From the NCBI RefSeq assembly GCF_965196625.1, contig NZ_OZ239769.1:990001-1022000 (forward strand): a DNA stretch of 32,000 nucleotides. Reading direction: 5' to 3'. Positions within the stretch are counted from its first letter, which is position 1. Every line of letters starts with the position of its first letter. The notes below the pieces were generated by a model. That model searched no databases. It was given only the letters and a program-made list of their open reading frames with translations, and was not told where the DNA came from. The stretch comes from Candidatus Saccharimonadota bacterium. GTDB taxonomy: Bacteria; Bacteroidota; Bacteroidia; Cytophagales; Amoebophilaceae. Position numbers and translations under genes: made by a program. Positions 29,215 through 32,000 of the stretch are shown here, one piece after another.

Positions 29215-29952
29215 TTAGGAAATGGCTTCAGCCTCCTCGTCTTCCCACCATAAATTGGTCACATAATATTTAATCACACTATCTTCTCCATAATCACGTT
29301 GGGTTCTTATTTGTAACGTGTAATTAAAGGTATCTCCAGTCCAACGCAAATGAATTTTATTTCTGAAACTTCCATAATAGGCCTTTACAGCATGAATCTT
29401 ATTGCTTGAATCTCCAAATGTACTAAGTGCTATAGCGTGGGTCATAGCATATAAACCACGCCCTTTTTTACCAATTTTAGCGATTACTTCAAATGCATGG
29501 CACGCATTTAATGGAGGCGTAATATTATACCAATTGCCATCACCAGGGGCTGTACCAGCAGCATAAGCACCCCTACGCCCATGCATGCTGATATTACCAT
29601 TCACAGTTAATTTTTCTGATGGATTGGTTGTACCAATACCAATATATCCATTTGCTTGAACAAAAAGTTTGCTTTCCCCCTGCTTATCAACAAGATTAAA
29701 CCCAAAATCTGGCGTGTTTTTGGGATACTGCTCAATACTCCAAGTCGGCTTAAAATCATTTAAGTTATTAAAAAAAGTTATCAACTTAGAGGAGCTCCCT
29801 TTAGGAGACAAACTCAAGCCATGATCTTGAGAAATAATCTTATCATCTTGTTTATGAAACATTGAGTCTATCAAATCCTCAAAATCACGCTGGGTAGGGA
29901 TAGATCCTTTTTCAAAGCTTTTCTTTAGTGCCTCTCTACTAGTGATTGCCAT
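29215..29952 (-). CDS. Tail-fibre-like / baseplate-distal protein of a contractile injection system
   Basis: 245 aa. Its start overlaps the stop of the upstream baseplate gene by 14 nt (ATGGCAATCACTAG). The N-terminal IPTQRDFEDLIDS motif and the NGYIGIGTTNPSEKLTVNGNI motif are both typical of Bacteroidota phage/eCIS tail-fibre proteins. Confidence 0.5.
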   Translation of the reverse strand: MAITSREALKKSFEKGSIPTQRDFEDLIDSMFHKQDDKIISQDHGLSLSPKGSSSKLITFFNNLNDFKPTWSIEQYPKNTPDFGFNLVDKQGESKLFVQANGYIGIGTTNPSEKLTVNGNISMHGRRGAYAAGTAPGDGNWYNITPPLNACHAFEVIAKIGKKGRGLYAMTHAIALSTFGDSSNKIHAVKAYYGSFRNKIHLRWTGDTFNYTLQIRTQRDYGEDSVIKYYVTNLWWEDEEAEAIS

Positions 29953-32000
29953 GATCGGTTCTAATATATTTTTTGGTAATTAAACAATATTCTTCTAAAC
30001 TTGGTATGGGTGCGCCTTGATCTACACATGGTATAGGTTCTTGCTTAGGGCGCTCCCATGGACCTACTATAAAATCTTCAGAAATAGCCATATCGCCTAT
30101 GCTGCCATGACGCAATTTAACAGCAGCATCGAATTTATCCACCACAGATATTTTATGATTTTTTGAAGAAACCATAACCGACCATGGATAACCGGCAAAC
30201 AAATGACTATCATAAGTTGTTACCTTATCCAGCTTTAAATCTGGAGCGTTACCAGAATACTTCAATATAGAAAAATTTCCTATGCCTTCTATATAATAAC
30301 GGTTATTAATGAAGTCTATAATCTTAGAAGTAGGTATATTTCCACCTAACTGTACATCCACTGATGGGTTTAATACCCAAGGAGAAAAAAAGTTGTGTAA
30401 ATCCTGGTATAACAAATTTAAGAATAATCCTTTTTCATACCCGGGTTTAAACTTAACGGTAACGTTAACTTTAACATCTTCATAAATAGGATTTATGACC
30501 TCGCACTTTATAAACGGTGTACTAACACTTTGAATATAGGTTTTAATTTCAGTTAAAAGCTGTCTGCTCACAAAAGGGATACCCGAACTAGGATCTGCTT
30601 TAGCCATGACCACAATGGTTATATGACCAGGTTGTGCCATATTATTTGTGCTTTTTGAGGTATGGTTGATACACTTTACTTTGAAAACTTCTGGAAATTT
30701 TTCAAGAACGATTCGTTCATAATCCCACACTGATATGGCTCTATTTTTATGCCTCAAACGTTCACTAACCCGCCTATAGAAGGCTTGATGATTTTCAAAC
30801 TGCCTTCCACCAAAAGTGGGAAAAGGTTGTAGGACCCATTCAATACCCTCTATAGGGTTCTGAAGTTCTTGAATTGCTTTTTCAGGTAATACCGGAGCAG
30901 AAAATACACCATTTCTATCCATCACCCTGGATACAGCAACGGCTTGTGTATAGACTCCAACTATAGTGGCCAATGCACCTTTTTTATCCATAAACTGTGC
31001 CTTAATCCAAGTTAACCCTGGCGTCATACGGGTATTGTTTCTATTTACCTCACTGGGTAAACTAGATAAATCAAAAATGATAATGCCAGATTGAGATAAT
31101 CCATTGGTTCCATCTACAACAATCGCTTCCTCGAAGGGCAGCCAAATATTGTCAGACAAATAAAACCACTTGGGTTGCTGGGTTTCTTGATCCGAACTGT
31201 TTTCACCAATAGCTATATGCATAGAAAGATGGGTGCTATTTAGATCTTCTATGCCAAAAGCGATAAATGATTCTTTCTGTTCTATCAATGGCAATAATGT
31301 AGGCGGGGCAGTTAGCTTGCTTGGAAAGGTCTTTAAATAACCAAAAGAAGAAATATGAAAAAAGCTGTTTAAATATTTTTCTTCCTCTTCTCCAGGAGGA
31401 GAGGTGAGTACCATAGATTCCTCCGCCTCGTAATCAACAGTAATCGATTTGATGCGGGGGGTATAGGGTTCATTCAAGACCGTTATGGTTTCTCCTTTCT
31501 TTTTCTGGGCATTTTTAACGAGTATACTGCTCATCAGGCTGGGATAGATGGCATGACCAAAAGCTTGCTCTGGTGCACATAATTGTAATTTTAAAAAACC
31601 AGCTACTGTTTTGGGGCCATAGACGTTAACCTCTAATGGATGGTTTGTTTTAGTGACCCGTAATGCAGCTACGTCAATGTCGTTAATGGTTCTCAGGTAA
31701 TCTAACTGTTCACTACCTTTATTATTTTTTATAACCTGAAAAAGAGGCACAACTTGTCTATTTTGGACATAAGATGGATTCCAGTGCTGATGATTTAAGT
31801 AAGAAATGTTTACCTTAAAATCATCGTTGCTTACCTTAATAGGATAGGCATCATAATAAGACTTAAATCCTCCTTCTATGGTAGGAATGCTATCCCATTT
31901 AATATTTATTTTTAAATCCGTTAGATTTTTAGAGAAGATTTCTCCACTACCTATATAAAAGCTACTATCGAGTTTGGCTAATGGCCCAAAAAGCTCAAAA
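29939..32000 (-). CDS. Baseplate wedge protein (Baseplate_J / T4 gp6 / Afp11-12-like), N-terminus beyond the window
   Basis: The ORF track starts it at GTG 31750. However, I checked every in-frame triplet from 31751 to 32000 and found no stop and no start codon, so the gene continues off the right edge (at least 686 codons visible). The core motif FENHQAFYRRVSERLRHKNRAISVWDYERIVLEKFPEVFKVKC resembles the conserved gpJ/gp6-family block. Confidence 0.6.
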   Translation of the reverse strand, partial: FELFGPLAKLDSSFYIGSGEIFSKNLTDLKINIKWDSIPTIEGGFKSYYDAYPIKVSNDDFKVNISYLNHQHWNPSYVQNRQVVPLFQVIKNNKGSEQLDYLRTINDIDVAALRVTKTNHPLEVNVYGPKTVAGFLKLQLCAPEQAFGHAIYPSLMSSILVKNAQKKKGETITVLNEPYTPRIKSITVDYEAEESMVLTSPPGEEEEKYLNSFFHISSFGYLKTFPSKLTAPPTLLPLIEQKESFIAFGIEDLNSTHLSMHIAIGENSSDQETQQPKWFYLSDNIWLPFEEAIVVDGTNGLSQSGIIIFDLSSLPSEVNRNNTRMTPGLTWIKAQFMDKKGALATIVGVYTQAVAVSRVMDRNGVFSAPVLPEKAIQELQNPIEGIEWVLQPFPTFGGRQFENHQAFYRRVSERLRHKNRAISVWDYERIVLEKFPEVFKVKCINHTSKSTNNMAQPGHITIVVMAKADPSSGIPFVSRQLLTEIKTYIQSVSTPFIKCEVINPIYEDVKVNVTVKFKPGYEKGLFLNLLYQDLHNFFSPWVLNPSVDVQLGGNIPTSKIIDFINNRYYIEGIGNFSILKYSGNAPDLKLDKVTTYDSHLFAGYPWSVMVSSKNHKISVVDKFDAAVKLRHGSIGDMAISEDFIVGPWERPKQEPIPCVDQGAPIPSLEEYCLITKKYIRTDHGNH

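Follow-up and report, generated by a model that had tools for sequence, protein, structure and literature searches.

The secretion system of type VI (T6SS) and subtype iv (T6SSiv) in Amoebophilus was reportedly characterised by Bock in 2017. The stretch analysed here, 32,000 nucleotides of contig NZ_OZ239769.1 (assembly GCF_965196625.1, positions 990,001 to 1,022,000 of the forward strand; hereafter the window), to judge from its sequence very probably carries the Cis11 and Cis13-like genes of a Cardinium T6SSiv, a phage-tail-derived contractile injection system (CIS) kept inside the bacterium, as a stand-alone two-gene locus amid housekeeping genes and apart from the other genes of the system. 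Cardinium is widespread and manipulates the reproduction of arthropods, and T6SSiv is considered its dominant machine for delivering effectors; the correct identification of its parts therefore matters for annotation.

In Cardinium hertigii cEper1, Penz et al. (2012) described 16 genes resembling those of the antifeeding prophage (AFP), distributed across five regions. One region holds CAHE_0037 (Afp11-like, with a Baseplate_J domain) and CAHE_0036 (an Afp13-like ‘virus fibre protein’), homologous to Aasi_0557 and Aasi_0556; the sheath and tube genes (CAHE_0456–0463), the VgrG, PAAR, gp25 and Afp12 genes (CAHE_0763–0760), the tape measure gene (CAHE_0118) and the ATPase gene (CAHE_0409) are found in others. 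That the two genes form a pair, stand apart from the main cluster and are assigned to Afp11 and Afp13 was therefore already published in 2012, and the locus described here is one more orthologue. All genes of the system are transcribed in cEper1, CAHE_0037 being among the highly expressed genes, and a recent proteomics study lists CAHE_0036 with the T6SS components that it highlights. According to a 2025 review, all sequenced Cardinium have a T6SSiv that includes the remaining components. Sheath arrays, intracellular and attached to the inner membrane, have been reported in Amoebophilus and inferred for Cardinium.

The longer of the two genes occupies the right end of the window, where a minus-strand frame running from 31999 to 29939 comprises 686 sense codons, closed by a stop codon and open to the window edge. 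This 3′ part of cis11 (29939–32000, minus strand), about 55% of the gene, encodes a baseplate wedge protein of the Afp11/Alg11/gp6-like type with a cage extension. All 686 residues align to residues 573–1258 of the 1,258-residue orthologue from Cardinium of Oedothorax gibbosus, at 89% identity; because the fragment starts at residue 573 of that orthologue, approximately 572 codons (about 1.7 kb) would lie past the window edge. The gp6-like core, residues 371–538 of the visible fragment (30386–30889, minus strand), matches the Pfam family Baseplate_J (PF04865) with an E-value of 1.8e-10 and 41 bits, against a cutoff of 21.1, and includes the block RAISVWDYERIVLEKFPEV. The fragment also gives a partial match to TIGR02243 (4.2e-08) and a match to the PHROG baseplate wedge subunit (1.1e-09).

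Searches of the PDB with phmmer place the fragment among the Cis11 proteins of solved injection systems. The strongest matches are to Cis11 of the thylakoid-anchored CIS (tCIS) of Anabaena (All3317, 7b5h_AH; 3.5e-68), to Alg11 of AlgoCIS (7aeb_G; 9.7e-67) and to Cis11 of the Salmonella CIS (SalCis11, 9rce_A; 4.3e-54 across residues 1–647), followed by Pvc11 (3.9e-24) and Afp11 (3.1e-13); the full-length 1,258-residue orthologue matches tCIS Cis11 at 4.7e-85. Homology to the solved proteins reaches beyond the core into the cage-type extension found in the tCIS and in clade Ib of the extracellular CISs (eCISs), and the orthologues in the fetched loci of relatives are intact at 1,252–1,265 residues. 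On these sequence matches the gene is classed as encoding a gp6-like CIS baseplate wedge protein of the Cis11/Afp11 class.

The comparison with AlgoCIS of Algoriphagus machipongonensis (PDB 7AEB), an eCIS of clade Ib and thus of the same clade as T6SSiv and the metamorphosis-associated contractile structures (MACs), is close for this protein, as Alg11 too is long and has a cage extension. Residues 141–629 of the fragment align to residues 550–1042 of the 1,050 of Alg11. Past the end of this alignment the Cardinium protein has about 57 additional C-terminal residues (29942–30112, minus strand), a candidate docking region for the fibre trimer on the assumption that this tail is homologous to the Cis11 extension of Anabaena. 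AlgoCIS differs in being released from the cell and in carrying an unrelated fibre, Alg19, bound to Alg12. The AFP of Serratia and the Photorhabdus virulence cassettes (PVC) share the gp6-like core, but their Afp11 and Pvc11 proteins have 607–728 residues and no cage; both systems act outside the cell, and each is encoded by one operon, with the fibre genes afp13 and pvc13 placed after gene 12.

The second gene (29215–29952, minus strand) encodes 245 residues and belongs to a family of 154 homologues of near-constant length (235–260 residues) that bears the name ‘adhesin’ at NCBI. Copies 67–94% identical stand directly after cis11 in nine of the ten fetched loci, those that reach that far. The stop codon of cis11 and the ATG of the fibre gene overlap by 14 nucleotides (29939–29952, minus strand), as they do by 11–14 nucleotides in eight of the nine fetched loci having both genes, an arrangement consistent with translational coupling.

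The protein itself has no match in Pfam or NCBIfam, including Adeno_shaft, the only Pfam hit at E ≤ 1 being a spurious one to ApoA-II, and a single-sequence search of the PDB was merely suggestive. A family profile built from 42 sequences was more informative. It matches residues 1–40 of tCIS Cis13 (All3316, 7b5h_AE, present as 18 chains, that is, six trimers) with an E-value of 2.4e-05, and there are weaker matches to the same N-terminal stretch in AfpX13 (0.068) and in a tail fibre from Photorhabdus (0.12). The corresponding N-terminal segment of about 40 residues (29833–29952, minus strand) is a two-helix, Cis13-type baseplate-attachment motif (…LKKxFxKGxIPTxxDFxDLIDS…). Farther along, the profile matches the repeated GxVGIGTxxPxxKLxVxG units of the Bdellovibrio proteins Bd2133, Bd3182 and Bd2439 (best E-value 8.1e-11); this β-repeat of the shaft (29530–29679, minus strand), which contains NGYIGIGTTNPSEKLTVNGNI, also matches a PHROG tail fiber protein (1.1e-04).

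The AlphaFold2 monomer model (mean predicted local distance difference test (pLDDT) score 84.6) consists of two N-terminal helices (residues 6–14 and 21–32), a β-strand shaft and an eight-stranded β-sandwich head. The head, residues 130–237 approximately (29242–29565, minus strand), is the best conserved and most confidently modelled part (pLDDT 90–96); residues W141, E155, A158, G166, H172 and L213 are invariant or nearly so in the family. In the PDB, Foldseek ranks highest for the model the trimeric fibres of Bdellovibrio, tailspikes and tail fibres of phages, and gp9 of T4, and among predicted viral structures there are 109 matches at E ≤ 1e-3, some of them named tail fibre. From the profile matches and the model, the 245-residue protein is assigned to the Cis13 class of short fibres and is predicted to be trimeric; it is not a fibre of the adenovirus-shaft type represented by Afp13 and Pvc13.

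The Anabaena tCIS (PDB 7B5H) is a solved counterpart of the pair, sharing Cis11 homology, the order of cis11 and then cis13, and the N-terminal 40 or so residues of the fibre. In that system Cis13 is a tail-fibre-like trimer whose N-terminal domains bind the C-terminal extension of Cis11, and the genes are ordered cis11–cis13–cis12 (PMC8894136). Past the N terminus the two fibres diverge: tCIS Cis13 has 154 residues and ends in a helical bundle whose C-terminal transmembrane helix is embedded in the thylakoid membrane, whereas the Cardinium protein has 245 residues, is all-β, ends in a globular head and has no hydrophobic or transmembrane segment (the maximum Kyte–Doolittle mean over 19 residues is 0.54). 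The shaft is in turn shared with the mosaic adhesive trimer (MAT) fibres of Bdellovibrio bacteriovorus (Bd2133, Bd2439, Bd1334 and Bd3182), the source of the best Foldseek matches. Those are cell-surface fibres of a predator and not parts of a CIS, and only the shaft repeat is held in common, so the likeness is one of modules and not of membership.

An earlier note on this DNA, made from the sequence without database searches, had anticipated much of the above. The long frame does continue to the edge through 31999 without a stop, the GTG start listed at 31750 being an edge artefact; the Baseplate_J block that the note had singled out falls inside the Pfam match, and its assignment of the gene to the Afp11/gp6 class of CIS baseplate wedge proteins is borne out by Pfam and the PDB. 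The 245-residue frame with its 14-nucleotide overlap is present, as are both motifs quoted for it, and the fibre-like character proposed for its product holds with the qualification, made above, that the class is that of Cis13.

To collect relatives of the locus, one genome of each species was scanned with six back-translated peptides; nine loci came back, all from Cardinium or Amoebophilaceae. Identities in tblastn are 89% to Cardinium of Oedothorax gibbosus, 88% to Cardinium sp. TP, 81–84% to C. hertigii cEhis1, cBtQ1 and cEina3 and to Cardinium sp. cBcalN2, 73% to Cardinium of Tipula unca, and 63–65% to two metagenome-assembled genomes (MAGs) of Amoebophilaceae. The closest available genome is 89% identical in Cis11, 92% in the fibre and 79% in holB (a range of approximately 79–93% at the protein level). 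By these identities the host is a Cardinium, an insect endosymbiont, of a lineage that has no representative in the collections searched (species-representative genomes, a gene index and metagenome contigs). The remainder of the window, with the housekeeping genes ileS, accA, pheS, pgk, greA and ychF, an energy-coupling factor (ECF) transporter and ankyrin-repeat proteins, is what the reduced chromosome of an endosymbiont would carry and does not suggest a prophage.

The pair in the window, whose host is a Cardinium strain or species other than cEper1, corresponds to CAHE_0037/CAHE_0036 and to Aasi_0557/Aasi_0556; this correspondence is one of features and position and not of direct alignment. 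In cEper1 and Amoebophilus asiaticus the same two-gene module is likewise separate from the sheath/tube and the spike/gp25/Afp12 regions. C. hertigii cEhis1 and cBtQ1, with Cis11 82% and fibre 87–88% identical to those of the window, have identical local synteny. The suggestion that the genes belong to the T6SS subtype iv of Amoebophilus and Cardinium is thus upheld by the 63–89% identity to loci of the lineage, by conserved synteny and by the presence of the pair on the published list.

The genomic setting of the pair is consistent across relatives. In all nine Cardinium and Amoebophilaceae loci cis11 reaches its 5′ end about 1.7 kb past the position that matches 32000, and upstream of it stands a divergently oriented gene for a membrane protein of 187–210 residues. 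Downstream, the cis13-like gene, rpmE and holB follow cis11 in the nine Amoebophilaceae loci wherever the fetched stretch reaches far enough; the complete order cis11, cis13-like, rpmE and holB is present in seven of ten fetched loci, a distant Amoebophilaceae MAG among them. On the complete chromosome of the Oedothorax Cardinium, the genes beyond the membrane-protein gene are cdaA, pdhB, tpiA and rbfA, together with an insertion sequence (IS) transposase and fragments of a group II intron reverse transcriptase, and at other loci they are accA, genes of biotin synthesis, a TLC ATP/ADP transporter, tRNA synthetases, nusA or transposases. The best 25 of the 42 families matched in these upstream flanks include none for sheath, tube, gp25 or VgrG.

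The earlier note had read the pair as the last two genes of an operon that runs off the edge of the window, with sheath, tube, spike, gp25, tape measure and ATPase genes just beyond 32000. The gene does run off the edge, and in free-living Bacteroidota genes for gp25, PAAR, VgrG, tube and sheath immediately precede cis11; but such a contiguous operon is very improbable here, because all nine relatives have the divergent membrane-protein gene followed by non-CIS genes in that place, and because the published system is scattered over five separate regions. Nor is the pair distal even where the cluster is intact. In complete CIS clusters of Mangrovivirga cuniculi (L011:6254–13763) and of a Flavobacteriaceae contig (L012:6256–13524), genes for sheath, tube, DUF5908, CIS_tube, VgrG, PAAR (not in every case) and gp25 are followed by Cis11 (1,239–1,247 residues), a member of the 245-residue family, a protein of 925–935 residues, the tape measure and an AAA ATPase. 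The 935-residue protein is Cis12, matching tCIS Cis12 at 5.7e-91 and Alg12 at 4.6e-83, so the pair sits mid-cluster, between gp25 and Cis12, and the fibre gene lies between cis11 and cis12 in Mangrovivirga, in the Flavobacteriaceae contig and in Anabaena, adjoining the genes of the baseplate wedge. The order baseplate J-like protein, wedge partner and fibre, which the note had taken as its model, likewise does not apply, since here, as in Anabaena, the gene next after cis11 is that of the fibre.

The locus is therefore best described as the stand-alone pair of cis11 and the cis13-like gene, and these clusters suggest how it came about. In the table of Penz et al. (2012) the homologue of gp25 (Aasi_1082/CAHE_0761) is numbered next to the homologue of Afp12 (Aasi_1083/CAHE_0760); this adjacency is the junction that the pair occupies in the free-living clusters, and we infer from its absence at that point that the pair was excised or relocated from mid-cluster in an ancestor of the Amoebophilaceae. 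With Cis12 of cEper1 encoded elsewhere (CAHE_0760), in contrast to the tCIS, where cis12 is next in the same operon, it is probably encoded elsewhere in this strain too. For annotators, the rest of the machine is not to be expected beside cis11 in this lineage.

In Cardinium of Oedothorax gibbosus (L002:4947–7132), the stretch between rbfA and the membrane-protein gene holds a transposase of the IS240 type and, split into two open reading frames (ORFs), the reverse transcriptase/maturase of a group II intron, which marks the upstream flank of cis11 as a site of rearrangement. In the most distant contig (L001, from ENA; Cis11 51% identical), positions 470–4281 contain a 110-residue N-terminal ORF, stops and then a 1,047-residue ORF, a split that could reflect a pseudogene, an insertion or an assembly error; small ORFs and metG follow the pair there in place of rpmE and holB.

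Both genes of the pair are under strong purifying selection. The ratio of non-synonymous to synonymous substitution rates (dN/dS), computed by the Nei–Gojobori method for window genes against five relatives, is 0.10–0.17 for cis11 and 0.08–0.12 for the fibre gene, and higher, 0.17–0.23, for holB. Such values bear on whether the pair is what is left, in decay and without function, of the tail of an ordinary prophage: phages too have Baseplate_J and fibre-like folds, and the pair is isolated from other tail genes, yet its orthologues are intact and keep their synteny across a lineage with saturated synonymous sites (dS up to about 1.5). Moreover, the strongest similarity is to Cis11 proteins of CISs that have cage extensions and not to phage gp6 or gpJ, the orthologues are transcribed, and that of the fibre appears in a proteome study. 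No capsid, portal, terminase, integrase or lysis gene is present in the window, where the other ORFs of at least 100 residues are housekeeping, ankyrin-type or without a family, or among the best 25 of the 42 families matched in the flanks of relatives, in keeping with the earlier note, which had seen no capsid or terminase context. Selection, synteny and gene content all speak against a prophage, a reading that was rejected as extremely improbable.

How the pair would act in a T6SSiv can be pictured from its solved relatives. By analogy with the Anabaena tCIS and AlgoCIS, six Cis11 and six Cis12 subunits, the latter encoded elsewhere, would assemble into an iris-like hexameric wedge ring, and the extra domains of Cis11 would form a cage around the spike. 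Each Cis11 would carry on its C-terminal part a trimer of the Cis13-like protein, docked through the N-terminal helices of the fibre as in the tCIS, with the fibre heads projecting from the cage toward the cell envelope.

In such an arrangement the most likely role of the fibre, held with about even confidence, is to connect the baseplate with the inner membrane or envelope of the bacterium, in which case the sheath–tube arrays of Cardinium cells would discharge outward, into the cytoplasm of the host. Xu et al. proposed a site on the cage of Alg11 homologues as the inner-membrane attachment of T6SSiv, and Aasi_0556 has been called ‘Cis13’ and suggested to aid inner-membrane anchoring (PMC12210884). 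As the Cardinium fibre is without a transmembrane segment, an anchoring role would need binding to a component of the membrane and not insertion. The lack of such a segment also fits a target-recognition adhesin, a trimer that would bind a host structure and trigger firing as in extracellular CISs, and this role, which we consider possible but the less likely, is also favoured by the NCBI family name, by a receptor-binding-fibre architecture whose best fold matches are Bdellovibrio MAT fibres and phage tail fibres, and by the homologues in full CIS clusters of free-living Bacteroidota. However, the systems of Cardinium and Amoebophilus are reported to be intracellular and membrane-attached, so that a fibre on the baseplate would point at the inner membrane of the bacterium, and the argument of PMC12210884 is for an anchor.

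Several points weigh against the overall interpretation of the pair as T6SSiv baseplate genes with an anchoring fibre. The 5′ 45% of cis11, which would encode the N-terminal core-bundle domain that pairs with Cis12, lies beyond the edge and could in principle be disrupted, and, as the window ends at 32000, the stand-alone arrangement is carried over to this strain from the nine relatives out of nine. The Foldseek template modelling scores (TM-scores) of the fibre are low, 0.2–0.36, despite probabilities of about 1.0, because a monomer model was compared with elongated trimeric fibres. Unlike tCIS Cis13, the fibre has no transmembrane helix, and the anchor role has been proposed only. Finally, free-living Bacteroidota also have homologues of the fibre, and if their systems are extracellular, as they could be, the head would there be target-binding.

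The divergent neighbour of cis11 offers one candidate for a membrane component. Its product combines a signal peptide with roughly four transmembrane helices and a conserved motif, SDSLDEILKKD, and the gene is seen, for example, at L002:7594–8154 (minus strand), L003:7592–8152, L006:7523–8143, L008:4772–5338 and L010:2062–2691; for this strain it would be expected at about 33.85–34.4 kb on the plus strand, outside the window. A word-seeded search of 5.8 billion proteins returned only 34 homologues, every named one from Cardinium or Amoebophilaceae, and tblastn with the 187-residue protein matched neither the Mangrovivirga cluster nor the distant contig L001. The protein is not on the parts list of Penz et al. 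(2012). It could be the inner-membrane receptor bound by the Cis13-like head, which would mark a lineage-specific switch from an extracellular-type CIS to the membrane-anchored T6SSiv, but we regard this as quite unlikely. The idea is weakened in that no homologue from Amoebophilus asiaticus is named among the matches, although a word-seeded search could miss one. A fibre without a transmembrane segment beside a conserved membrane-protein gene nonetheless makes a testable hypothesis for the attachment of baseplate to membrane.

On the other side of the pair, rpmE and holB (27583–29083, minus strand) follow on the same strand, as the earlier note had stated, and are confirmed by coordinates, Pfam and NCBIfam; they are conserved neighbours and not parts of the machine. 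The rpmE product is the type B, zinc-independent paralogue of L31 (NF002462, 4.7e-38). Its ORF spans 28814–29125 (minus strand), but the GTG start at 29125 is probably wrong, the likelier start being the ATG at 29083, where the family match begins. holB occupies 27583–28710 (minus strand). The spacings along fibre gene, rpmE and holB are 131 and 103 nucleotides, with no terminator-like site between the genes; consensus scans for promoters and terminators gave no more sites than shuffled sequence and are uninformative on co-transcription of the pair with rpmE and holB. Scanning the window against Rfam and for tRNA genes returned nothing.

No sheath, tube, VgrG, PAAR, gp25, Cis12, tape measure or ATPase gene of a CIS was found within the 32-kb window. 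Two ORFs checked as possible parts, at 3273–4673 (plus strand, 466 residues) and 15483–17138 (plus strand, 551 residues), have no match to Pfam or to PDB sequences; the 551-residue ORF is kept next to pheS in Cardinium of Tipula unca at 53% identity. Three proteins of the window are eukaryote-like. Two are ankyrin-repeat proteins, encoded at 8831–10018 (minus strand, 395 residues) and 18271–20469 (minus strand, 732 residues), the second of which has repeats over most of its length. The third, of 475 residues (25469–26896, plus strand), has weak matches to ankyrin and to RING/PHD-like zinc fingers, and a 52%-identical copy adjoins holB in Cardinium sp. TP. The earlier note had put forward secreted eukaryote-like proteins of the window as plausible cargo or co-evolved effectors, roles for which these three would be putative candidates. 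The protein encoded at 5501–7270 (plus strand) is predicted to combine an AAA-ATPase-like domain (PF09820) with a PD-(D/E)XK nuclease domain (PF08011); it was considered as the ATPase of the CIS and rejected, as its AAA family differs from that of the FtsH-like Afp15 homologue in the table of Penz et al. The guanine–cytosine content over positions 1–6000 is 0.30–0.33, against 0.37–0.44 elsewhere in the window, and the low stretch around the PF09820 protein may be mobile or recently acquired DNA.

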